Below, in pieces: positions 25,545 to 61,804 of a DNA stretch of 64,000 nucleotides. This DNA is from Vulcanimicrobiales bacterium (GTDB lineage: Bacteria; Vulcanimicrobiota; Vulcanimicrobiia; Vulcanimicrobiales; Vulcanimicrobiaceae), in the NCBI GenBank assembly GCA_038231455.1, contig JBBRLI010000001.1:128001-192000 (forward strand), read 5' to 3'. Within the stretch, counting starts at the first letter, position 1. Every line of letters starts with the position of its first letter. The notes beneath the pieces were generated by a model. The model was not told the origin of the DNA. It did no database searches and saw only the letters and a program-made list of their open reading frames with translations. The translations under genes were made by a program, and so were the position numbers.

Positions 25545-26312
25545 CTAGACGGGGAGACTTTCGGCGTCAGCGACGGCGGCGTGCGGGTCGTTCATCCACG
25601 CGCGGACGTTGGTTTCGAACGCACGAAGATCGCCGTTGGTGAAATACCGTACGGTCCCATTGCCCGGCCTCGTGCAGAGGGCAGCGGCAACGTGCGCTTG
25701 AGCGATCGCCGGATCGACGATCTCCGTCTGTGCCGGTAACAACGCGCGAAAATGCTCGGCGAGCAGCGGATAGTGGGTGCATCCCAAAACGAGCGCATCG
25801 ATCGGCCCCGCGATCTGCGCGATCGCCTCGGCGACCGCGGCGCGAGCTTGCGGCGTTGCGGCGTCGCCGCGCTCGACCAGCGGCACGAGCGCGGGCGCGG
25901 CGATCTCTTGCACGTGAATGTCCGGCGCGTGGAGCGCGATCGTTCGGGCATAGGCGCCGCTACGCACTGTCGCTTGCGTCGCGATCACAGCGACGCGCCG
26001 GTGTGCGGTCCGCGCCAGTGCTCGCGCGGCGTTGTCGATCAAATCGAGTACGCGTTCGCGCGTCGTCGGCCAACCGTACTTTCCGCCGATCGCGCACGAC
26101 GTGTTGCACGCCATCACGATTCCGCCGACGGGAAAGCGTTCGAGAAAGGCGAGGTTCTCACCGAGCAGATGGACCAGATCCGCATCGGTGCGTTCGCCGT
26201 ACGGGACGTGCGCCTGATCGGCGAAGTACACGAGATCTTCGCTGGGAGCGAGCGCACGAACGGCCTTGAGGACGGTCAATCCGCCAAGGCCCGAATCGAA
26301 GAGTCCGAGCAC
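25545..26312 (-). CDS. murI: Glutamate racemase
   Basis: FDSGLGGLTV, HVPYG, ACNTS, LGCTHY. Confidence 0.96.
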   Translation of the reverse strand: MLGLFDSGLGGLTVLKAVRALAPSEDLVYFADQAHVPYGERTDADLVHLLGENLAFLERFPVGGIVMACNTSCAIGGKYGWPTTRERVLDLIDNAARALARTAHRRVAVIATQATVRSGAYARTIALHAPDIHVQEIAAPALVPLVERGDAATPQARAAVAEAIAQIAGPIDALVLGCTHYPLLAEHFRALLPAQTEIVDPAIAQAHVAAALCTRPGNGTVRYFTNGDLRAFETNVRAWMNDPHAAVADAESLPV

Positions 26313-28348
26313 TAGCGCTCGCCCGCCATTGACGCGGTCGCGGGCTGCGATCGCGTAAAGTCGCGCACGCCGTTTGCGATACCCTGTGCTACGTGTTGCA
26401 AAAACTCGGGCGAGCGCATGAGCGATGCGTCTCCGGGGTTGGAGATGAATCCCGTTTCGACAAGGATCGCAGGCATCGTGGTCTTTCGCGTTACGTACAG
26501 GCGGCCGGCGCGGGCGCCGTCGTCTTTGGTTCCAAGCAGCGGGATGAGGTCGCGCTGCACCGCATCGGCGAGCGGTTTATCGATGCCTTTCGAGTAGAAC
26601 GTCATCGTTCCGTTCAGATCGGCCCGCGGGAAGCTATTGATGTGCACGCTGATGAAGAGGCGGGCATTTTGCACGTTCGCAACGTCGACGCGGGCTTGAA
26701 GTTCTTCGGCGTCGGCGGCATTTGCACGCGCCACATCGACATCCGTCGAGCGCGTCATTTTTACCGTCCACCCTTGCGCGACGAGCAGCGCGCGTAAGCG
26801 CAGCGCAATATCGAGCGTGAGCGTCTTTTCGACCAGGCCATTGCCAAGCGACCCGGGGTCGCTGCCGCCATGACCCGGATCGATCACGATGAGTTTGGAG
26901 CCATTCGGCGGCACCGCATACTTCCACGGCGAGCTCGAGCCGAGCGGAGTTGGGTACGCAGACGCTGCCGGCGCGAACGTTTCGCCGGGATACGGCGATC
27001 CGAAACCGCTTGCGGGTGCGGTCGGCGGCACGCCGATGGCACCGCTACCGAATCGCGCTCCTTCGCCGAACGCGCTGCCGTCGATTGCAAGCGAAAGGCC
27101 GCCGTCGAGCGGGACGATTTCGACGCGCCGGTCACCTTTGAGCGTCACGGCGACGCGCACGATCGGAATTGGCGATGTCGCGACTTGGCGTGCGCGAACC
27201 GCATCCACGGCAGCAACGTTCGGGCGTTCGTCGCGACCCGACCCGCTGAGTTGTGCGTTTTTGAAATCGATGTACCAGCGATTATCAGCGAGGCGGTGCC
27301 ACTCGTACGATACCGGTCCGCTCGCCGTTACGCGCACGCTCACCCCATCACCGAGCGGATCGACACCGATGTCGGTGATGGTCACGGGTGCGTTCACCGT
27401 CTCCGGAGTCGCGGTTGCAGCGGGGGCCGATCCTTCGCTCGGCGCGTACGTTGCGGCGGCATTCGGCCCCGGCGTCGGCGCGAGCGTTGCCGCGGCGCGC
27501 GGCGTCCGCACCGGAATCGGGAACGTTTGCGCGATTGCTGGCTGCGTGATTCCCGGCGTGAACCACTCGGGGATTGCCGCACCGAGCGCCGTCCCCGACG
27601 GACCGAAGGCAACGGCGAATTCATTACTCGAGGGCGCGATTGCAAGGCCATGCGCAACACCGGCTGGGCCCTCGATCGTGACCGTGGTTGTGGCGTTTCT
27701 CGGGTTGCCGCTCACCAGCACATCGACTTCGTTTACGGCCCCGCCGTTCAGGCGGCGGGCCTGCGTGAGGGTCGATGCAACGCCGGAGAACGCGATCGTC
27801 ACGCGCTCGGGTGACTCGGAGATCTTCGTATACTTGAGCGGGATCGCGCCCCGGAACGTTAGCGTCGTGCGCTTCGCCTCGGTGCGTACGTCGAGACCGC
27901 CGAGCTGCGGCTGCAAGACCGTCTCGCTACCGATTTTCACCGGCTCGACATACAGTGCGCGCGCGAGTGCGAGAAACGGCACGTAGAGTTCGCCAGCCTC
28001 GAGATACGGCGCAAATGGAGCGCGCGTCGTCACGCCCCCGCCCGCGATCTGTGCATCGCCGATCGTGAGCGTGATCGTGCGCCTATCCGCCGTCGTGACG
28101 ATCGCATAACTTTGACCGGGCGCAAATGCAAGCGTTGCTCCGAGCTTGGCCAAGAATCGCTCGAAGCCCGCATCGTGAATCGGAGCGGCGACATCGCCTT
28201 TGACGGCTTGCGATCGCTCGAGAATCAGCTTGGTGCCGACGAACCAGAAGGCGCTCGCTTCTTGGGCACGCAGCGGCGCCGGCACGCAGAACGCGGCTAG
28301 CGTCAGCGCGAGAAACGCGCTACCAGCTCGAGCGCGAGAGCGGCTCAT
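26312..28348 (-). CDS. N-acetylmuramoyl-L-alanine amidase (Amidase_3) with N-terminal stalk and AMIN-like domains
   Basis: Signal peptide; IDPGHGG, VEK, SVHIN, LVETGF. Confidence 0.92.
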   Translation of the reverse strand: MSRSRARAGSAFLALTLAAFCVPAPLRAQEASAFWFVGTKLILERSQAVKGDVAAPIHDAGFERFLAKLGATLAFAPGQSYAIVTTADRRTITLTIGDAQIAGGGVTTRAPFAPYLEAGELYVPFLALARALYVEPVKIGSETVLQPQLGGLDVRTEAKRTTLTFRGAIPLKYTKISESPERVTIAFSGVASTLTQARRLNGGAVNEVDVLVSGNPRNATTTVTIEGPAGVAHGLAIAPSSNEFAVAFGPSGTALGAAIPEWFTPGITQPAIAQTFPIPVRTPRAAATLAPTPGPNAAATYAPSEGSAPAATATPETVNAPVTITDIGVDPLGDGVSVRVTASGPVSYEWHRLADNRWYIDFKNAQLSGSGRDERPNVAAVDAVRARQVATSPIPIVRVAVTLKGDRRVEIVPLDGGLSLAIDGSAFGEGARFGSGAIGVPPTAPASGFGSPYPGETFAPAASAYPTPLGSSSPWKYAVPPNGSKLIVIDPGHGGSDPGSLGNGLVEKTLTLDIALRLRALLVAQGWTVKMTRSTDVDVARANAADAEELQARVDVANVQNARLFISVHINSFPRADLNGTMTFYSKGIDKPLADAVQRDLIPLLGTKDDGARAGRLYVTRKTTMPAILVETGFISNPGDASLMRSPEFLQHVAQGIANGVRDFTRSQPATASMAGER

Positions 28349-28817
28349 CAAGCTCAAAGTGGCCTCCGGGAAGTGTTGCGACTTTGGCTCCGCCGATCGT
28401 GATGCGCACGGCTTTGATATTCGGCAGAGCGGTCAGGGTCCAAACCAGCGACTTGAATTCACCGTTTTCAGCAAAGCCGCCGGCAGCCGATGAATCGATC
28501 TCTTTTGAGATATCGACATGGATCGTCGAACCCTCAACGTCGACGGCATTCAGGTGCGTTCCAACGGGAAAACGAATCGCATCGACGCCCGGAGCGGGAC
28601 CCGCGAGCGCTTGGGTTGCGGTGTAAAACGCGACGCTCTTGAGATCGCGCGCAGAGCCGAGGCTCACTCGCCACGGCACCTCGCTTTGCCCGTCAAGTTT
28701 GGTGTAGTAGACGGTCACGGTATCGCCCGCTGCCGGCCGCTGACCGAACCACCACCACGCCGCATAGGCGGCGCCCGTAAAGAGTGCGATAAAAATGAGG
28801 ATTCGCAGCGATCTCAC
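28320..28817 (-). CDS. GerMN domain protein
   Basis: N-terminal TM; LAGP...FPVGT...VDIS...SLVWTLT.LPNIKAVRITIGG. Confidence 0.85.
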   Translation of the reverse strand: MRSLRILIFIALFTGAAYAAWWWFGQRPAAGDTVTVYYTKLDGQSEVPWRVSLGSARDLKSVAFYTATQALAGPAPGVDAIRFPVGTHLNAVDVEGSTIHVDISKEIDSSAAGGFAENGEFKSLVWTLTALPNIKAVRITIGGAKVATLPGGHFELDEPLSRSSW

Positions 28818-28878
28818 GGGATGAGAACTTCGGAGAAATGACGAGAACAGCCTGTGGACTTATCGGTGGGGGGCGTGA

Positions 28879-30432
28879 ATGGATAACGGGCCGGGATTTT
28901 TGCCGCACGGAATGTGTTTTCTGTGGGATCCGCGCGTACTCTCGCTCCATGTGATCTCCGATGCGCTTACGGCGATCGCATATTTTTCGATCCCGGTCGT
29001 CTTGATCTGGTTCGCGCGCACGCGCGGCGACCTGCCTTTCCGCAGCGTCTTTATCATGTTTGGCCTGTTCATCGTTGCATGCGGAACGACGCACGTGCTT
29101 TCGATTTGGACGATTTGGCACCCGGACTACTGGCTCTCGGGGTGGGTGAAAGCGCTCACGGCAACGGCCTCGGTCGCGACCGCCATCATCTTAGTGCCAC
29201 TGGTCCCGCGAGCTCTCAAGCTGCGCAGTCCACGTGAACTCGATCAACTCAACATCGCACTGCAACGCTCGCTCGATGAAAAAGACGAACTGCTCGTGCG
29301 TTACCGGCGCGAGCACTTCATCGCCGACACCTTTCAAAGCGCGTCGCTTGCCGCGCATCTGCCGACGGTCGATGGAATCACGTTCGATGCCGTGTATCAA
29401 GCCGGAACGAGCGATCTCGAAGTCGGCGGCGACTGGTACGACGCCTTTCGCTTAGGCGACGGACGGATCGTGATCTCGATCGGCGACGTCGCGGGAAGCG
29501 GCCTCGGCGCGGCGGTGACGATGGGCAGGATGCGTCAAGCGATTCGCGTCGCCGCGCAAATTCAAGTCGAACCCGGCGCCATTCTCACCGCCGCCGATCG
29601 CGCGCTGCGTGCCGAAGAACCCGACCGCATCGTCACGGCGTTTGTGGGCGTGATCGACAACGTGGATGGCACGCTTGCGTATGCATCTGCCGGGCATCCG
29701 GCGCCGCTGTTGCGCCGAGCCGACGGCACGATCGTCGAATTGACGCTCGGTTCGTTGCCGCTCGGACTACGCGAACGCTCGGATGAGGCAAGCGCCACGG
29801 TCGCGCTCGAACCCGGTTCGATTATCGTGCTCTATACCGACGGGTTAACGGAGTCGACGCGCGACGTCATCGAGGGCGAACGCCGCTTACGGGAAGCGCT
29901 CGAGATTCAAGCGGCGGCCGTCTCGGCAAATCCGGCGCGCGAAATTCACGATCTCGTCCTGCATGACGGCGCGCACGATGACGTTGCAATCCTTACGGTG
30001 CGTATTGGAACGACGGCCGTACCCTCCGCGCGGTGGACGCTCGACGTCCGCGATGCCGCCGCCGCAAGCGCGATTCGCGTTGCGATCGTCGCCGAACTCG
30101 TAACGGCCGGAGCGAATACGGAGAGCGCAATGGCAGCCGAACTCGTTTTTAGTGAACTCATCGGCAACGTCGTGCGTCACGCGCCGGGCCGCGCCGAGAT
30201 TCGTCTCGATTGGTCGGGGGGTGCGCCGGTGTTGCACGTGCTCGATGAGGGTCCTGGCTTCCAATACGTCGGCTCACTGCCCAAAGATCTCCTGAGCGAG
30301 AGCGGTCGCGGACTGTTTCTCGTCGGCGCGCTTTCCGATGGGATTTTGGTGTTGCGACGGCCGGGCATCGGGAGCCACGCGCGGGCTATTTTAGCGTTCG
30401 TCAAACGGCCGCTGCGCGCGATGCAAGCGTAA
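28879..30432 (+). CDS. Ethylene-receptor-like 3-TM sensor + SpoIIE PP2C phosphatase + RsbW-like HATPase
   Basis: SDALTAIAYFSIP...FIVACGTTH...VKALTA; GGDWYD, IGDVAG, AGHP, LYTDG, DDVA; ELIGNVVRHA, DEGPGF, SGRGL. Confidence 0.88.
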   Translation: MDNGPGFLPHGMCFLWDPRVLSLHVISDALTAIAYFSIPVVLIWFARTRGDLPFRSVFIMFGLFIVACGTTHVLSIWTIWHPDYWLSGWVKALTATASVATAIILVPLVPRALKLRSPRELDQLNIALQRSLDEKDELLVRYRREHFIADTFQSASLAAHLPTVDGITFDAVYQAGTSDLEVGGDWYDAFRLGDGRIVISIGDVAGSGLGAAVTMGRMRQAIRVAAQIQVEPGAILTAADRALRAEEPDRIVTAFVGVIDNVDGTLAYASAGHPAPLLRRADGTIVELTLGSLPLGLRERSDEASATVALEPGSIIVLYTDGLTESTRDVIEGERRLREALEIQAAAVSANPAREIHDLVLHDGAHDDVAILTVRIGTTAVPSARWTLDVRDAAAASAIRVAIVAELVTAGANTESAMAAELVFSELIGNVVRHAPGRAEIRLDWSGGAPVLHVLDEGPGFQYVGSLPKDLLSESGRGLFLVGALSDGILVLRRPGIGSHARAILAFVKRPLRAMQA

Positions 30433-30473
30433 GGGACGAAGGGACGCGCGTGCGCGCGTCCTAATCGCCCGCC

Positions 30474-32456
30474 ATGAGAACTCGCATCGTTTCGATCGCG
30501 CTTGCCTGCGCATTTGCCGTCGCGATTCCGGTCGCCGCACAGGCGCGAATGACTGGGTTCACCGTGTCCTCGCGGACCGATGTGCTCGATGGCAAGCCCT
30601 TTGCCGTCGGCCCATACGAAAAGATCGTTGGGACGGCGACGTTTGCCGACGATCCGAGCGACCCGCACGACCGAGGCGTCGTCGATCTTGGGCTCGCGCC
30701 GCGCGATGCAAACGGCCGTGTCGCCTCGCACGCCGACGTGTATATGCTTGCGCCGAAGAATGGTGAGAACGGCAACGGAAACGTACTGCTCGAGGTCAAT
30801 AATCGCGGCGGCAAAGGGATGCTGCGCTTCTTCAACCACGCCAAAAGCTCGCCGGATCCAACAACGGCGCTTGAGTTCGGCGATACATTCTTACTCGATG
30901 CGGGTTACACGTTGGTATGGGTAGGATGGCAGTGGGACGTGCCCCAGCAGCCCGGCAACATGCGCCTTTACGCGCCGGTCGCAACCGAGCGCGGCAAATC
31001 CATCATGGGCCTCGTCCGCTCGGACTTTACGACAACGAAGCCGATCACCGAACAACCACTCTCGCATCGCGATCATATCGCCTACCCGGTCGCGGATGAA
31101 AACGACCCAGCAAACGTGCTCACGATGCGTGAGGGCGTCGCAAAGCCGCGCACCATTATCCCGCATAGCGCCTGGCGTTTGAACGCCGATCGCACCGCGA
31201 TCGTTGGCAATTTTGTCCCCGGCCACATTTACGAATTCGTTTACCGCGCGAAAGACCCGGTCGTCGATGGCTTGGGGATTACAGCCGTGCGTGATTTCAT
31301 CTCGTATCTGAAATACGACCCGACCGCAATCAAGCACGTTCAGCGCGCCTACGGTTTCGGCATCTCGCAGAGCGGCCGGTTTTTGCGTGACATGCTCTAT
31401 CAAGGGTTCAACACCGATGAGTCCGATCGGCTCGTGTTCGACGGCGTGCTCGCGCACGTCGGCGGCGCGGGCCGCGGCGCGTTCAATCTGCGTTTCGGCC
31501 AGCCTTCACGCGACGGCCCAAGCTTCTCGTCGTTCTTTTATCCAGTCGATCTCTTTCCGTTCACCGACGTCGACGAGAGCGATCCGCTCACCAATGCGGT
31601 CGATGGGTTGCTCACGCATTCGCATGCCGATGCGACCAAAGTCAAAGTGATGTTCACGCACACATCGTACGAATATTACGGACGCGCGGCATCGCTGATG
31701 CACACTTCATCCGACGGATTGCGCGACGTCGAACCGGGCCCAAACGCACGCATCTACTTCTTCTCCGGCGGCATGCATTACGTACCGGCGCTTGGATCGC
31801 GCGATCCGCTCGCGCAGCAGCTGCAAACGCCGAGCGACCACACGTTCGCGATGAAAGCGCTGCTCGTGGATCTCGACCAATGGGTGCGCAACGGAACGGC
31901 GCCGCCTCCGAGCAGCGTGCCGAAAATTGCAAACGGTACGCTCGTGCCGCTCGATAAAATTGCGTGGCCGGCAATTCCGGGCTTCGCGCATACGCCGACC
32001 TACCACCGCGTGTGGCGGATGAATTTTGGACCGCAGTTCGCAAACGGCATCGACACGACCGAGCCGCCGATCCTCGGCCAGCAATATCCCGTCCTGCTTC
32101 CGCAAGTCGACAGTGACGGGACGGATCTCGGCGGCATTCGCATGCCCGAAGGCGCCGTGCCGATTGCAACCCTTACCGGGTGGAATCAGCGCGTCGCGGG
32201 CGTCGGCTTCCCGGATGAAAACGTCGACTTCGTGGGCTCGATGGTGCCCTTTGCCAGGACCGCCGCGGAACGCAAAGCCGCGGGCGATCCGCGCCTCTCA
32301 CTCGAAGAACGCTATCCGACGAAAGCCGCATATATGGCACGATACGAAAACTATGTGCGCGGCCTCGCCTCGCAGCGGCTCTTACTCAATGCGGATATCC
32401 CCGTAGAACTCGCGCGCGGCGAGCAGTTTTGGGAGTTCGCAAGCAAACCGCATTAG
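30474..32456 (+). CDS. Secreted alpha/beta-hydrolase-domain protein
   Basis: Signal peptide; GYTLVWVGWQWD, nucleophile elbow GISQSGR, DPRLSLEERY. Confidence 0.75.
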   Translation: MRTRIVSIALACAFAVAIPVAAQARMTGFTVSSRTDVLDGKPFAVGPYEKIVGTATFADDPSDPHDRGVVDLGLAPRDANGRVASHADVYMLAPKNGENGNGNVLLEVNNRGGKGMLRFFNHAKSSPDPTTALEFGDTFLLDAGYTLVWVGWQWDVPQQPGNMRLYAPVATERGKSIMGLVRSDFTTTKPITEQPLSHRDHIAYPVADENDPANVLTMREGVAKPRTIIPHSAWRLNADRTAIVGNFVPGHIYEFVYRAKDPVVDGLGITAVRDFISYLKYDPTAIKHVQRAYGFGISQSGRFLRDMLYQGFNTDESDRLVFDGVLAHVGGAGRGAFNLRFGQPSRDGPSFSSFFYPVDLFPFTDVDESDPLTNAVDGLLTHSHADATKVKVMFTHTSYEYYGRAASLMHTSSDGLRDVEPGPNARIYFFSGGMHYVPALGSRDPLAQQLQTPSDHTFAMKALLVDLDQWVRNGTAPPPSSVPKIANGTLVPLDKIAWPAIPGFAHTPTYHRVWRMNFGPQFANGIDTTEPPILGQQYPVLLPQVDSDGTDLGGIRMPEGAVPIATLTGWNQRVAGVGFPDENVDFVGSMVPFARTAAERKAAGDPRLSLEERYPTKAAYMARYENYVRGLASQRLLLNADIPVELARGEQFWEFASKPH

Positions 32457-35978: not shown

Positions 35979-38900
35979 TCATTGCTTCTGCACAATTTCT
36001 GGAATAAGTTGGTGGATAATATTTCCAGTCGAAATTAGAGTTTTTAGAGGACCGCTGAGCTTCGTATCTGCGCGAACATATAACACAAAATCTAGGTTAT
36101 TGTCCTTCGCAAAGCTGGCGTAGTCTCGCAACTGTTGAGTATAACTTTGCGTTGTCACGTTCTTAATCTCGGTCAGCGTAGTTTCGGTCAAACCGTCTGG
36201 AATTCGAGTGACCCCTCCGATTTGAATTTTTACTTTTTTACCGATATCGATACCTGGTATAGCCCGAACAGCTTCTTCGCCGCGCCGTCCGACGGCTGCG
36301 GCCGAGCGTCCAGCGCCGGGATGCTCCAGAGCTTCAGTAATTGCTGGTCCATTTCTTGCAGAAAAACTTCCTAGAGCAACCGCCGCTCCGCATAGTATTG
36401 CTAGAGGACCGACGCAGTAGCCGCTGGGATCGCTATAAACATATGCATTATTCCGATTCCACATAAAGGGCATCTGCGAAGCGGGGTCGTGCACTTCTCC
36501 GGCGTACGCATCGGGCGTCGTCCAAGAAGCCAAATTCGAATTGAAGGCTCGCGCCCCGTTAATTTGGAGCTTGCCCAATTTGAAGCCATCGGGGCGAGTG
36601 TATTGCATGAAAGAGTTGGTCGGTGGGGTGAAGCCTGATCTGGCAGCGACCGCGAACGGAGCCGAGTTGTCCGTGGGATTTAGGGGTGTCAGCCAAGATG
36701 AGCCGCTGCTATTCGACGATTGTAAGATCACGTTCGCACTATCCCGATCGTACGTATTCAACCCTGAAAAGTTGCTATCGTGCGGATAAACGTCTCCGTC
36801 AAGGCCGACTTTAAAGTTCACGACGCTTCCACTTGCATCGGAGACGAATAACAACATGTCTCCATCCCAATGCGCCGTCCAAATCGAATTTGAGGTGTTC
36901 GCGTAATTTGGATCGATTGTTCCTGTAAAAAGAACGGGGTGACCATTGGAGCCCCAAGCTATCGATAACGGGCCAGCATCGAATGTTGAGTTCTGTGTCG
37001 CACCGGTCGATGAGCGGTAGGTCGAGGTGGCGCTTTTCGCATGCGTCCAAACTGTGTGATCTGCGAAATCGTAAGCTGCCGGCTCGGTACTCGAGGTTCT
37101 TCGCGTGACCGTCCCACCCCCGGTCTCGGCCGGACCGTCAGATATTGTCGTTTCCGCCATCGTGCTGTTCGTCATTCGACCACTTGCGTCAAACACGAAA
37201 TCCGATGAATTTTCAGAGCCACTACTGAAAGTTGAGTCAGAGTGAACACTAATTCCGTTAATAAAGTCACTGGAGTTATTCTGCGTGACCGCCGAACTGC
37301 CCTCAAACATTTGTGGCATCGACTTGCCAAAACCGTAACTAGGAATTGTCCTTGTATAGCCTTGCAAGACATATGGAATTGGCGAATACTGAGATTGTAT
37401 TAACTCACCCCGAACATTGAAGATATTGGAGACGGACACTGGCGAGCCTGTGGACTGCCCCGCTGTTAAGATCGGATAAACCGACGAGAATCCGGCAGTA
37501 ATCGGATTACCTTCAGCGTCATAGTCGTATGAGAGAGTGCCGGAGGGAACCGTCAACGTTGCAAGTTGCCCAGCTTGATCGTATGTCCGAGATTGGAAGT
37601 CGTTGTTGACAGCTTGGGATTGTAAGCGGCCACCCGCGGTATACAATCTATTCCAAACGGCGGACGCAGATTGGTTGTACGTCTGCTGGGCCAGCAGCCC
37701 GTCTACTCGATAAGAGTACGTGAGTACATTGGGAATGTTGAGAGTCGGTGAAAACACCGAAAGTGACTTCTTCCCACCGTCTGAAAAGTATGAGTACGCA
37801 AGATGGGCAGGATCCGTTATGCCGCCTGCCGTCGGCTCGAGGACGTCGGTTAGTTCGCCGCGGAGATCGTAAGATAAAGTCTCAAGACCAAACTTACTCG
37901 ACGTTAATGTAGCGGGGCGACCAGCTGGGTCGTAGACGATTTGCTCGTTCGGAGTCGTGTTGGCGCCACCGTCGGCATTGGAGGTCGGTGCCAAGTAGGT
38001 TCTGGTGACGATCCTAGCCAGCGCGTCATACGTAATCGACATAACTTCGCCGGTGGGCTTTGTTTCGGTCGCGCGTAAGCCCCAATGGCCTTCGCCGTCA
38101 TACGTATCCACGGTTGCCAATGGCGTGTCCGGGCTACCGGGTTGATATGTGTACTTCGAGAGGGACCGATCCATCGCATCGAAAGAATTTCCACGCACGT
38201 CGGTCATGACGCCAGTCCACGACTGTGTCTTGAAAAGATTGCCGTACGCGCGGAACGTTGGCGATCCTCGAAGAGAGACACTTCCGCCCTGAGAGAGATC
38301 ATAAATATAGCGCATGATCCAAGGAGAGCCATCATATTGCGCTAGGGAGCCGTCTTGATAAGATCGCGGGTCGTGAGGCTGTTGAACTTCTATAAGGCGA
38401 TCGGCACCGTCGTAGAACTTTCGAGTCGGCGATTCGGCACAGCTGGCAAGTGTACAACCCTCATGGCGTAACTCGGACGTAACATCGCCGTCCCTGTCAT
38501 AGGCATATGATGTCCTAACGTTAAGCCGTGCTTCTCCCGGAGACTGAGTCGTGGCGACCGAGCCATCCGGGAAATACGTTGTAGTTGATGCGTAGCCATC
38601 CGGGTCATTCGCTTGGACTATCCTATCGAGCCCATCGTAACTCAGAGACCAAGAGCCGACCCCCTTGCTATAGTTAATAACATTTCCGCGCGTGTCATAC
38701 GAAAACGCCTGAGTCGGGGTGCGCCCGGCATCCTCCGGAATTGGGTCGCCAGTAACCGAAACAGGCAGTCCGTATTCATTCCCTCCCTCCAAATTTGGGT
38801 TATATGCAAAGTGCGTCGCGTACGGTGCTGCACCAGAGCGCGGAGAGGGAGCCTGGATCTGTAAAAGCCGACCGTAGGGTTGATATGCCGGATAGTCCCA

Positions 38901-40835
38901 AGTCATCACCGTCGAGACTGAATTTGCGGGGCACACACCGGGTGGGGGCGGACTCGAATACCAATTCCAATTCAGATTGTTCGTGGCCACTTCATCGCAA
39001 TAGGCCGTGACATTATTATACGCATCGTACGTAAAAAGCTTCGTTGGGCGTAGAGTTCCAGCGGATGTGGTGGTTTGTGGAGCGGCGACCGCAATAGTAT
39101 TGCCGTTAGAATCGTATGCGTAATCAGTCTCGTTGTACGGCCAGGTGATTTGAGATATTTTATTGTTGTTAGAATCCCAGCCTTCTACTTGCGTCAGCCA
39201 CTGGTAACCGTTGTACGTGAGTCGACTCGTCGGCCTACCGGGATCGCTGAACGAGCCGTTTCCGCAACCGTCGATATATTGAACCACTTGATGCCCGTCG
39301 CTGTCGCTATACGAAGTGCTGTTGCAACTCCCGGTTACCGTCTCGTATCGGTACATGAACCAGCCTGTCGGGTATCCTGGCTGCAGCTGCGTGTTCGTAC
39401 CGTCGTTCAGATACGCCGGTCCAGGTGACATTGCGCCATATAGGCCAATTCCAAAAACTTGACCGCTGAGAAAGCCGCGCTCTTGAAAAGCAACATATCC
39501 GCCTTCGTTTCCTTGATTAGCGTATGCACGCGCACCGCCAATATACATGACGTTGTGATAGCCGCCATATAGCTGAGTGGCAAGCTGACCGCTATTGTCC
39601 GGTCCAGGCTTCGAGACCAGCGATAGATTTGAACTGCCATCATAGCTATACGTGATCGCGGCTCCGTCCGGACGGTCGACCTCAGAGAGTAAACGTTGCC
39701 CATTGACATCGGCGAATTTTAAGGTTGCCTGGAGGCATCCACAGTCCGCCGCAACGACGATCTGAGAGAGATTTGCACTGGAGGATGCATCGCCGTTCCA
39801 CGAATACGAAAAATTCAGAGAACTGTGACGGTTTCGCGCCTGTATTGAAACTAATCGCCCGCTATAAGCTGCACTCGCTCCGCTATAATACGGCGAGTAG
39901 AACATATATTGGGTTCCATTCTTCTTTATCCAGAAAAATGAACCACCATCCGGATTGGCAATCAACATCGTTCCTTGCATCCCGGCGGGCGGGACGAGCT
40001 GGCCAGATGCATTGAAGCAATAGTCGTATCGGGCGCCGTCGACGTCATAAACCGAGAATCCTGAGAACCCAGCCCACGAGTAGCCGACATTAGCGCAGTC
40101 GTTTGTCGACATGTGTGCATCGAACGTATTCGTCCACCCATTGCCGTATTGACCAATTTCAGTCGACCCATCGCTGCTTTGATAGTCGTGCCCGCCAAGG
40201 GAATTATACGTCCGACGAAACGCAAGGTCGATGCCGCGATAGGGGATATCAAAATCCGTTGACTGCACAATTAGGTTTTGCCAGTGCGCGTTTATCATCC
40301 AGTGGCCAACCCCTGGGATGTCGCCTTCTTCATAAGACCACCACGGATTAATGCCGGTTACGTTGAGCGTGTTTTGTGTGACCTGCGAGGCGCGACGAGT
40401 TGTACCAGCTCCCCGTTTACCAACCGCAGTCGGCGCCGATGCCGAAGTCGTCGAGGCTGTCGAGATGATTCTGCTCGATGATGCACGACTAAAAAAACGA
40501 ACTACCGCTTCTCCAGAATTGCGCTTACGCTTCGTTCGCATGTCGTCGTCATCATCGCCGATCCGCGGTCCAGGTTGTCGGAGGCCGGCGGCGGGAGCGT
40601 TTTTCGTCGCTATCTTTGGTTTCTCGATGTGCGTCACCGCGGGTAGAGTTGGCTTGGGTTGCGGGCGCTGATGCCGATCGAATTTCTTCGGATCGTCTGG
40701 GAAAAACGAAGGAACGAAATATGAATTCAACGAGCCGCCGCTCGCCGTTCCAGACGCATCGGAGGGCGAGCACGAAATCGCCATAAAAGCAATCGAAAAA
40801 AACGCCGCTAGGGCAGCGCGATAAACCAAGGACAC
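35979..40835 (-). CDS. RHS/YD-repeat polymorphic toxin with signal peptide and C-terminal Tox-REase-7-like nuclease
   Basis: GGAGG SD before GTG 40835; hydrophobic leader; DUF6531-like DLAFRRTYNS; many YD repeats; core end RNNAYVYSDPSG; tip RIPDG...EIKNV...YTQQLRD. Confidence 0.9.
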   Translation of the reverse strand: MSLVYRAALAAFFSIAFMAISCSPSDASGTASGGSLNSYFVPSFFPDDPKKFDRHQRPQPKPTLPAVTHIEKPKIATKNAPAAGLRQPGPRIGDDDDDMRTKRKRNSGEAVVRFFSRASSSRIISTASTTSASAPTAVGKRGAGTTRRASQVTQNTLNVTGINPWWSYEEGDIPGVGHWMINAHWQNLIVQSTDFDIPYRGIDLAFRRTYNSLGGHDYQSSDGSTEIGQYGNGWTNTFDAHMSTNDCANVGYSWAGFSGFSVYDVDGARYDYCFNASGQLVPPAGMQGTMLIANPDGGSFFWIKKNGTQYMFYSPYYSGASAAYSGRLVSIQARNRHSSLNFSYSWNGDASSSANLSQIVVAADCGCLQATLKFADVNGQRLLSEVDRPDGAAITYSYDGSSNLSLVSKPGPDNSGQLATQLYGGYHNVMYIGGARAYANQGNEGGYVAFQERGFLSGQVFGIGLYGAMSPGPAYLNDGTNTQLQPGYPTGWFMYRYETVTGSCNSTSYSDSDGHQVVQYIDGCGNGSFSDPGRPTSRLTYNGYQWLTQVEGWDSNNNKISQITWPYNETDYAYDSNGNTIAVAAPQTTTSAGTLRPTKLFTYDAYNNVTAYCDEVATNNLNWNWYSSPPPPGVCPANSVSTVMTWDYPAYQPYGRLLQIQAPSPRSGAAPYATHFAYNPNLEGGNEYGLPVSVTGDPIPEDAGRTPTQAFSYDTRGNVINYSKGVGSWSLSYDGLDRIVQANDPDGYASTTTYFPDGSVATTQSPGEARLNVRTSYAYDRDGDVTSELRHEGCTLASCAESPTRKFYDGADRLIEVQQPHDPRSYQDGSLAQYDGSPWIMRYIYDLSQGGSVSLRGSPTFRAYGNLFKTQSWTGVMTDVRGNSFDAMDRSLSKYTYQPGSPDTPLATVDTYDGEGHWGLRATETKPTGEVMSITYDALARIVTRTYLAPTSNADGGANTTPNEQIVYDPAGRPATLTSSKFGLETLSYDLRGELTDVLEPTAGGITDPAHLAYSYFSDGGKKSLSVFSPTLNIPNVLTYSYRVDGLLAQQTYNQSASAVWNRLYTAGGRLQSQAVNNDFQSRTYDQAGQLATLTVPSGTLSYDYDAEGNPITAGFSSVYPILTAGQSTGSPVSVSNIFNVRGELIQSQYSPIPYVLQGYTRTIPSYGFGKSMPQMFEGSSAVTQNNSSDFINGISVHSDSTFSSGSENSSDFVFDASGRMTNSTMAETTISDGPAETGGGTVTRRTSSTEPAAYDFADHTVWTHAKSATSTYRSSTGATQNSTFDAGPLSIAWGSNGHPVLFTGTIDPNYANTSNSIWTAHWDGDMLLFVSDASGSVVNFKVGLDGDVYPHDSNFSGLNTYDRDSANVILQSSNSSGSSWLTPLNPTDNSAPFAVAARSGFTPPTNSFMQYTRPDGFKLGKLQINGARAFNSNLASWTTPDAYAGEVHDPASQMPFMWNRNNAYVYSDPSGYCVGPLAILCGAAVALGSFSARNGPAITEALEHPGAGRSAAAVGRRGEEAVRAIPGIDIGKKVKIQIGGVTRIPDGLTETTLTEIKNVTTQSYTQQLRDYASFAKDNNLDFVLYVRADTKLSGPLKTLISTGNIIHQLIPEIVQKQ

Positions 40836-61241: not shown

Positions 61242-61804
61242 GAGATCGCCTCCGCGCCTTCTATCGAGCGACGCAAATGTTGCATTGCCAACCGCACGCG
61301 GCTCTTCACCGTACCAAGGGGCGCGCCGACGACGTGCGCGATTTCCGTTTGCGTGAGTCCGCCAAAGTACGCAAGTTCGATCACCGCGCGCTGTTCCGAA
61401 TCGAGATCGTCGAGTGCACGCCGGATGTCGCGTTCGAGTTGATGTTGCATGGCTATCTCGGCGGGTCCGCCGCCATCAGCTGCCCGCTCGCGAGTTGCAT
61501 CGAGTTCGACCATCGGACGCGCCCGACGTTGACGATCGATTGCCGCATTGCGCAATACGGTCAAAAGCCACGGCCGAATGCCGCTGCCGACGATACTGCC
61601 CGCGCGCGTCCAAAGAGCGAGAAAGGTTTGTTGTGTGAGGTCGTCTGCCGTCGAACGATCCGCGCAGACGCGCGATGCGAACGCGAAAACCGCCGCGCTA
61701 TGGCGGCGGTACAGTTCCTCGAACGCATCGGCGCGACGCGCGACGACGAGACGCAAGAGCGCCCCATCATCAAGTGCGTTTATTTGCTCGAGAGATCGCC
61801 GCAC
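61238..61804 (-). CDS. ECF sigma factor (SigK-like)
   Basis: AFEELYRRH, WLLTVLRNAAID, LAYFGGLTQTEIA...PLGTVKSRVR. Confidence 0.93.
   Translation of the reverse strand: MRRSLEQINALDDGALLRLVVARRADAFEELYRRHSAAVFAFASRVCADRSTADDLTQQTFLALWTRAGSIVGSGIRPWLLTVLRNAAIDRQRRARPMVELDATRERAADGGGPAEIAMQHQLERDIRRALDDLDSEQRAVIELAYFGGLTQTEIAHVVGAPLGTVKSRVRLAMQHLRRSIEGAEAIS

Follow-up and report, generated by a model that had tools for sequence, protein, structure and literature searches.

The ethylene receptors tested so far, those of plants, Synechocystis and Azospirillum, all have histidine-kinase-like outputs. In Arabidopsis ETR1, Cys65 and His69 of helix II are the copper ligands, Asp25 of helix I and Lys91 of helix III form a polar bridge, and Thr68 lies near the copper; Asp25, Cys65, Thr68, His69 and Lys91 are highly conserved across 1,221 ethylene-binding domains (EBDs) (PMC10266040). 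Ethylene binding has also been shown for two bacterial membrane receptors, SynEtr1 (Synechocystis Slr1212) and AzoEtr1 (Azospirillum brasilense), in each case as 14C-ethylene bound by the first ~130 residues (PMC11819568, PMC6682694). As an initial annotation of the DNA described here had stated, both are histidine kinases (PMC11819568), which signal to a response regulator. Here we describe a gene whose product has the same three-helix EBD with the same binding residues, but in which the output is a PP2C phosphatase plus an RsbW-like ATPase, with no HisKA match. It lies in a stretch of 64,000 nucleotides (the window) from an uncultured Vulcanimicrobiales bacterium of soil or sediment (assembly GCA_038231455.1, contig JBBRLI010000001.1, positions 128,001 to 192,000; this contig is C1 below).

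The output has its own described relatives. Mycobacterium tuberculosis Rv1364c fuses an RsbU-like PP2C directly to an RsbW-like ATPase, as the window's protein does, whereas Rv1364c is cytoplasmic, with a PAS sensor and its own C-terminal STAS domain (PMC12143880), and our protein has a membrane EBD; being without PAS and without STAS, it falls outside the Rv1364c type. Bacillus subtilis RsbU and Pseudomonas aeruginosa RssB carry a SpoIIE-family PPM phosphatase after a helical linker, again as here, but their inputs are the partner RsbT or a receiver rather than a membrane ligand-binding domain, and they have no fused ATPase. Activation of RsbU comes about through its linkers, which cross as a coiled coil and thereby dimerise the phosphatase domains via switch helices, and it has been proposed that this shared linker logic lets sensors swap among PPM phosphatases, histidine kinases and diguanylate cyclases (PMC12143880). 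The gene and its parts, in window coordinates, are as follows.

28879..30432, plus strand: whole gene, EBD, linker helix, PP2C and HATPase_c_2, 517 amino acids (from the open reading frame (ORF) list and translation)
28903..28926, plus strand: motif P-H-G-M-C-F-L-W, residues 9-16, ahead of helix 1 (from conservation among EBD proteins)
28936..29223, plus strand: ethylene-binding domain (ETR1_N, PF25487), residues 20-115, three membrane helices (Pfam)
29230..29346, plus strand: alpha-helical linker, residues 118-156, predicted coiled coil between helix 3 and the phosphatase (AlphaFold2 model)
29458..30006, plus strand: SpoIIE/RsbU-type PP2C (PPM; PF07228), residues 194-376 (Pfam; the fold begins near residue 160)
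30055..30360, plus strand: HATPase_c_2 (PF13581; RsbW/SpoIIAB-like anti-sigma serine kinase fold), residues 393-494 (Pfam)

The reading frame is intact over its 517 codons' worth of protein, and the gene start agrees with the N-termini of two relatives (P0002 and P0003). The initial annotation had proposed an ETR1-type binding domain, and a profile alignment of the domain bears this out: ETR1_N matches the protein with 137.1 bits (cut-off 27, E 2.4e-40), the match covering positions 2-97 of the 97 in the model, and it appears at the same place in a profile search of the genome, with 140.8 bits. The SpoIIE-type PP2C matches with 141.9 bits (cut-off 25, E 3.1e-41) and HATPase_c_2 with 39.7 bits (cut-off 27.4, E 5.9e-10). 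HisKA has no Pfam match in the protein, and HATPase_c, the histidine-kinase version of the ATPase, stays at 22 bits, under its cut-off of 26.4; because of the missing HisKA match, the protein does not belong among the two-component ethylene receptors. NCBIfam gives nothing over cut-off for the 517-residue protein. In particular, its curated RsbW model (PRK04069) reaches 11.2 bits against a required 145, and RsbA_anti_sig 38.4 against 210. The ATPase, first described as intact and RsbW/SpoIIAB-like, thus earns that description at the level of the family but not as an RsbW equivalog: since the curated model is not reached, the domain is a fold-family member and no RsbW orthologue. Judged by these profiles, the EBD and PP2C matches are far beyond chance, the N-terminus is a full ETR1-type ethylene-binding domain and a true member of that family, and the protein as a whole belongs to the ETR1_N, SpoIIE-PPM and HATPase_c_2 families.

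The residues and motifs named in the initial annotation are found in the translation where it had placed them, and they are conserved in relatives. D28, Y35, I38 and P39 lie on helix 1, I65, C68, T71 and H72 on helix 2, and K91, which sits within VKALTA and is the helix-III lysine it had mentioned, on helix 3; the output motifs are GGDWYD (183-188), GDVAG (202-206), TDG (320-322) and DD (367-368). We compared the protein with ETR1 by published residue numbers rather than by sequence alignment (PMC10266040; Tyr32 on helix 1 from bioRxiv 10.1101/2022.06.13.495978). By these numbers, the spacings of C68, H72, T71 and D28 equal those in ETR1, with the cysteine and histidine of helix 2 four residues apart, the aspartate of helix 1 forty residues before the cysteine, and a lysine on helix 3. 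A constant offset of +3 to ETR1 had been claimed; it holds for D, Y, C, T and H, but the helix-III lysine has an offset of 0. For conservation, a search with residues 1-125 found 493 proteins at E<=1e-3 out of 643 candidates, of which we classed the best 120 by profiles of our own, in agreement with the Pfam columns. D28, Y35, I65, C68, H72 and K91 are each present in 30 of the 30 three-domain proteins of this set (EBD, PP2C and HATPase_c_2, query included), I38 in 28 and P39 in 26. The same eight positions are kept in 89-90 of the 90 other EBD proteins, with one Asp-to-Asn variant. I35, P36 and I62 are reportedly among the ETR1 residues required for ethylene binding, a result attributed to Wang et al. 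2006. SynEtr1 and AzoEtr1, the EBDs shown to bind 14C-ethylene, have the same seven residues of helices 1 and 2 that the initial annotation had listed, from the aspartate to the histidine (PMC11819568).

Ahead of helix 1, a motif P-H-G-x-C-(F/Y)-x-W is almost invariant in bacterial EBDs: H10 is present in 117, C13 in 119 and W16 in all 120 of the 120 EBD proteins. Cyanobacterial EBDs have one N-terminal cysteine where plant receptors have two that form disulfides (PMC6682694), and C13 may be this single cysteine. With such conservation, the histidine and cysteine could serve more than a disulfide role, for example as a copper entry or lid site. ETR1 differs from our protein in those two cysteines, and also in its output (GAF, histidine-kinase-like and receiver domains) and in its location in the endoplasmic reticulum membrane.

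AlphaFold2, run on a 35-row alignment of three-domain proteins (42-82% identical to the window's protein), predicts the whole chain with a mean predicted local distance difference test score (pLDDT) of 84.5 and a predicted template modelling score of 0.70. The membrane helices span 18-48, 55-80 and 84-114 (block pLDDT 80-90); after helix 3, a single long helix runs from 118 to 156, followed by the PP2C fold and then the ATPase fold. Positive charges in the 46-55 and 111-119 loops suggest an N-out, C-in orientation. By fold, Foldseek ranks the RsbU plus RsbW part of Rv1364c (3ke6, E 5.4e-21) first among solved structures, with P. aeruginosa RssB next; by sequence the best solved match is again 3ke6 (E 1.1e-22, query 154-435), and the modelled HATPase_c_2 domain can be aligned with the RsbW domain of that structure. 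In the phosphatase, the metal-binding acidic residues D185, D188, D203, D321, D367 and D368 are invariant in the 35 three-domain proteins, in keeping with the initial annotation's intact SpoIIE/RsbU-type PP2C; any assignment of single aspartates among them to particular metals is our presumption. In the ATPase, E426, N430, D456, G458, G476, R477 and G478 are likewise invariant, in ATP-binding motifs that we take to be the N box, G1 and G2.

The linker between P110 and Q153, which are both invariant, is 43 residues long in 22 of the 35 proteins, 36 in 5 and 29 in 8, and no other length occurs; length changes confined to steps of seven are expected of a coiled coil that depends on its register. 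A homodimer model covering residues 1-380 scored 0.66, against 0.00 for the best of three controls; this is a prediction from our own alignment. The score mark was reached by 20 of 30 solved same-chain pairs and by 1 of 23 solved single chains, counts that hold only roughly for a model built on our own alignment. Contact agreement between runs was at least 94% and partner pLDDT at least 81. In the predicted interface, helix 1 packs against helix 3 of the other copy, K91 touches D28 across the dimer, and the linker makes contacts every 3-4 residues over 117-156, followed by residues 209-246 of the PP2C, the first two helices of its fold. Crossing linkers and the first two PPM helices are also the surfaces through which dimerisation is proposed as the general switch of phosphatases such as RsbU and RssB (3eq2, 3f7a) (PMC12143880). 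A dimer is a further point of comparison with ETR1, and for the window's protein it is a predicted one. Together, the heptad-step linker and the homodimer model suggest a relay through a dimeric coiled coil, as in RsbU.

This domain combination recurs. The 30 three-domain proteins among the best 120 EBD relatives stand beside 7 with EBD and PP2C only and 83 with other outputs, such as a histidine kinase with or without a receiver, GGDEF, or PAS only; the EBD is thus found, within this set, on all three of the outputs PPM, histidine kinase and GGDEF. None of the best 120 (284-905 amino acids) has a STAS Pfam domain, a fused STAS form having been sought only indirectly, in this way and through the ends of the cassette matches below. 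The smaller class consists of six cyanobacterial proteins of ~400 amino acids and a seventh, of 370, that lies on a 2.7-kb contig and is probably cut. The cyanobacterial EBD-PP2C proteins (Nostoc, Rhizonema; annotated 'PP2C family protein-serine/threonine phosphatase') resemble ours in joining an EBD to a SpoIIE-type PP2C, but they are without HATPase_c_2 and their PP2C is divergent (E ~1e-25 to our PP2C profile, against 1e-85 to 1e-119 for the three-domain group). A tree of the 120 EBDs, built on 122 columns and with many open forks, places 28 of the 30 three-domain EBDs together in a weakly supported group. Of the 38 rows in this group, 9 are proteins with other outputs, mostly GGDEF, interleaved with the three-domain ones. 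The six cyanobacterial proteins form their own clade within the cyanobacterial kinase EBDs (support 93). Since this clade is separate, theirs is an independent fusion, and the EBD has been joined to a PP2C at least twice.

Within a sample of 301 genomes of the phylum, the window's own among them, 19 have ETR1_N over cut-off; the one other genome of the same genus in the sample has none. The three-domain type stands at 5 of the 18 best-match loci from other genomes of the sample, all of them in the window's family. In a wider survey, in which each bacterial or archaeal species was represented by a single genome, 421 of 451 pattern matches encode EBD relatives, found in Gammaproteobacteria, Steroidobacteraceae, Duganella/Rugamonas, methanotrophs, cyanobacteria, Acidobacteriota and others. 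The full-length protein was matched in only four of the 80 kept; all four are relatives of this lineage, and each of their genomes holds 9-13 further matches to the output cassette. As a separate observation, EBDs occur at methanotroph loci of Methylomicrobium, Methylomonas, Methylomarinum and Methylobacter (L059, L089, L094, L101, L107, L115 and L116), organisms with a high copper demand. The protein is not singular to this genome: the same build is present in 30 of the 120 best EBD relatives and in at least 5 other genomes of the phylum sample. The initial annotation had also asked for a survey of the architecture, which yields the recurrence; we found no open paper on an EBD with a phosphatase/anti-sigma output, or on an EBD in Eremiobacterota, though listings in reviews or supplements are not excluded by that search. 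A classification of bacterial PP2Cs (PMC12088040) has no occurrence of 'ethylene', 'ETR1' or 'HATPase'. Existing automatic annotation names such proteins 'serine phosphatase RsbU / anti-sigma regulatory factor', and the Pfam model already exposes the architecture to anyone who looks.

The output half also occurs without this sensor. A scan of 1.84 billion cluster representatives gave 86,525 matches at E<=1e-3 and 3,764 at E<=1e-30. Among the best 150, matches end near the C-terminus, and 145 are without an EBD (346-1,464 amino acids, 44-59% identity), their matches starting at query residue 85 or later, mostly at 125-144; only P0122, P0124, P0154, P0165 and P0104 extend into the EBD. The genome from which the window comes, a metagenome-assembled genome (MAG) of 3.71 Mb in 106 contigs that is 93.67% complete, has 18 SpoIIE and 28 HATPase_c_2 matches, with both in one frame in 11 ORFs. 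By tblastn it has 10 paralogous PP2C-ATPase stretches (36-55% identity), and the EBD is unique in it. At their N-termini, the paralogous cassette proteins have PAS and/or GAF (6), MASE4 plus PAS (1), MHYT (1) or no Pfam match (3). By its sequence relatives, then, the PP2C-HATPase_c_2 half is a generic output cassette of the lineage. The uniqueness of the wiring had been overstated: the output is stock for this lineage, and cyanobacteria have the EBD on a different PP2C. It is no new kind of system, both halves being known families and their combination common in metagenomes; the protein is a genuine sensor, conserved and recurrent, whose pairing of two known modules has yet to be studied at the bench.

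The paralogue with MHYT, a membrane domain, is a 624-residue protein (C9:38010-39881, minus strand; L161) with the same SpoIIE and HATPase_c_2 cassette. MHYT has been proposed as a metal-dependent gas sensor. If it works in that way, this genome would have a second membrane gas-type sensor on the same output.

The assembly has no 16S rRNA gene that we could find. Its RpoB is 91% identical to that of a Candidatus Velthaea MAG, 90% to that of a MAG titled 'Armatimonadota' (L042), 85% to that of a Candidatus Eremiobacteraeota MAG and 84-93%, in pieces, to that of a Vulcanimicrobiota bog MAG; for a Thermoanaerobaculia control, also in pieces, the figure is 60-75%. These identities place the organism in Eremiobacterota/Vulcanimicrobiota (WPS-2). 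The phylum label of the 'Armatimonadota' MAG is, given its RpoB, probably wrong.

We propose the following mechanism. The protein would be a homodimeric inner-membrane receptor. Most likely, C68 and H72 hold Cu(I) with the help of D28, and the ligand bound within the membrane is ethylene or another small unsaturated molecule like it. The ligand would alter the polar link of D28 and K91 between helix 1 and helix 3, and the change would run down helix 3 into the coiled-coil linker (118-156), altering its register or rigidity. This would change how the two cytoplasmic PP2C domains pair via their first two helices, and hence phosphatase activity. The substrate of the PP2C would be a phosphorylated STAS (anti-anti-sigma) protein whose gene lies elsewhere in the genome, and the fused RsbW-like ATPase would be the opposing serine kinase or would hold a partner. 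The ligand would in this way set the phosphorylation state of a partner switch, which would in turn control (stress-type) transcription dependent on a sigma factor. In this scheme we infer that the domain binds copper and ethylene, that the ATPase is active as a kinase, which way the switch is thrown and what the substrate is. We give about even chances to this reading as a whole, that is, to a homodimeric EBD receptor acting through ligand-set partner switching on sigma-dependent transcription. The initial interpretation was close to it and was reasonable; it is partly supported, having been overstated in uniqueness and being unproven at the ligand and target steps. Its term 'one-component' is loose, as a separate substrate protein is needed.

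Several points weigh against the proposed mechanism. To our knowledge, the physiological ligand of an EBD is established only for plants, cyanobacteria and Azospirillum. A search of the PDB gave no EBD structure with which the geometry of the site could be compared. The pass of the dimer model may partly reflect the solved RssB-type PPM dimers (3f7a, 3eq2), the EBD tree rests on few columns with many open forks, and the HATPase_c_2 match is modest, with the curated RsbW and RsbA models well out of reach. No STAS, sigma or anti-sigma gene adjoins the receptor gene. Among the 10 ORFs flanking four orthologues there is likewise no STAS, one of these ORFs being a small HATPase_c_2 protein, and no neighbour is shared between the window and the four orthologue loci.

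The same protein and relay could instead report copper supply, redox state or another membrane-soluble ligand (for example other alkenes, CO or isocyanide-like compounds), a reading that we consider unlikely though worth keeping in mind. Ethylene binding depends on the Cu(I) cofactor (PMC10266040), so that gaining or losing copper would in itself alter the EBD. EBDs are common in many free-living soil lineages and in the genomes of copper-dependent methanotrophs (Methylomicrobium, Methylobacter, Methylomonas), whose high copper demand leaves room for a copper-status reading. The MHYT paralogue on the same cassette points the same way, in so far as MHYT is a metal-dependent gas sensor. Ethylene as the ligand is nevertheless favoured by the strong conservation of every position needed for its binding and by the fact that all EBDs tested, from plants, cyanobacteria and Azospirillum, bind it (PMC11819568, PMC10266040, PMC6682694).

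Further down the proposed pathway, the question is what the phosphatase and ATPase act on. The genome has 12 STAS matches over cut-off in a profile search, none of them on C1. Several of the 12 carry the D-S-T-G-L serine motif, eight single-domain STAS proteins have Asp-Ser at the usual phosphorylation site, and a STAS gene lies directly downstream of two of the 11 cassette genes (C13:79456-79764 and C8:33672-33983). Two rows of genes have the make-up of partner-switching systems.

C6:8058-9259, plus strand: RsbV-RsbW-sigma-like row, STAS (D-S-T-G-L-G), small HATPase_c_2, sigma-70-family gene
C2:111100-115034, plus strand: stressosome-like row, RsbR-like protein of 295 amino acids (C-terminal STAS), RsbS-like STAS protein of 138 amino acids, two HATPase_c_2 ORFs, two SpoIIE phosphatases

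Given this STAS set and these two rows, partner switching is a natural sink for the output. The initial annotation's partner-switching output is therefore matched by parts in the genome (the STAS proteins, the SpoIIE proteins and the RsbV-RsbW-sigma row), whereas its STAS target was pure inference, with none adjacent; a particular STAS substrate and a sigma end point are presumed. Gene neighbourhood was tried as a route to the substrate and was set aside, as there is no conserved neighbour and no flanking STAS.

Alternatively, the HATPase_c_2 domain might be no STAS kinase at all, and might act as a membrane-tethered anti-sigma factor that directly holds a sigma factor, or regulate the PP2C internally. 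Binding of sigma factors and phosphorylation of STAS proteins are both functions of RsbW-type proteins. That dual role, the modest match of the domain outside the reach of the curated RsbW and RsbA models, and the absence of an adjacent STAS gene all speak for this alternative. Against it, the invariant ATP-binding motifs (E426, N430, D456, G458 and G476-G478 in the 35 proteins) argue for nucleotide use, two paralogous cassettes have the STAS gene directly downstream, and Rv1364c fuses the same PP2C-ATPase pair to a STAS domain (PMC12143880). We regard it as quite doubtful.

Partner switching may also end on something other than a sigma factor, for example on a second-messenger enzyme, as in Pseudomonas SiaA/SiaB/SiaC. 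The SiaA PP2C (6k4e) is among the Foldseek matches (and is also matched by sequence, E 1e-05), and the GGDEF outputs interleaved in the three-domain EBD group (the 9 other rows of 38) suggest that the same signal feeds cyclic di-GMP control in relatives. The canonical STAS/anti-sigma kinase/sigma row and the stressosome-like row are, however, the usual sinks of RsbU-type phosphatases, and a non-sigma end point seems improbable to us. A chance or decayed resemblance with no sensing is refuted by the Pfam E-values (2.4e-40 and 3.1e-41), the intact frame and the functional residues conserved in 35 orthologues at 42-82% identity; we found nothing in its favour and treat its probability as negligible.

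The genes on either side of the receptor gene are as follows.

25545-28817, minus strand: glutamate racemase MurI, a 681-residue AMIN plus Amidase_3 protein, and a GerMN (Germane) protein, with overlapping ends, directly upstream
30474-32456, plus strand: secreted alpha/beta hydrolase, 660 amino acids, signal-peptide-like N-terminus, Abhydrolase_10, 41 nt after the receptor gene

Further downstream, beyond the hydrolase, come genes for an oxidoreductase and an acyl-CoA dehydrogenase, and the Abhydrolase_10 gene is not kept beside the four orthologues. A promoter and terminator scan of 28500-30800 gave one minus-strand promoter-like site and one terminator-like site, both intragenic and no more than expected from shuffled sequence. 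Elsewhere in the window, a 198-residue frame of the size of an extracytoplasmic function sigma factor has a sigma-70 region 2 match (61517-61714, minus strand; C1:189517-189714). The GC content is 0.515-0.53 at 36001-40000, against 0.58-0.65 elsewhere in the window, and this low-GC segment may be acquired DNA.

How a copper site in three helices can move a cytoplasmic enzyme is an unsolved question, as there is no EBD structure. A compact receptor of 517 amino acids, with a simple phosphatase, a known on-switch (dimerisation driven by the linker) and a clean heptad-class linker, could make that question assayable in vitro. It also brings a membrane gas sensor into the idea of an exchangeable toolkit, in which phosphatases, histidine kinases and diguanylate cyclases have sensors in common. 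The broader proposal, to which we give somewhat less than even chances, is that in Eremiobacterota a copper-containing membrane domain reads ethylene or a related gas and passes the signal, with no histidine kinase, to serine phosphorylation of an anti-anti-sigma protein that gates a sigma (general-stress-type) programme. If this is true, then together with the cyanobacterial EBD-PP2C clade and the EBD-GGDEF proteins it would mean that bacteria feed one gas signal into three major signalling currencies. The finding itself suggests that uncultured lineages of soil, peat and sediment sense ethylene or a similar gas, which bears on plant-microbe and anoxic-soil ecology. The main value of the protein lies in its being a small, assayable model of an EBD driving a cytoplasmic enzyme, and a lead that an uncultured phylum senses ethylene-like gases.

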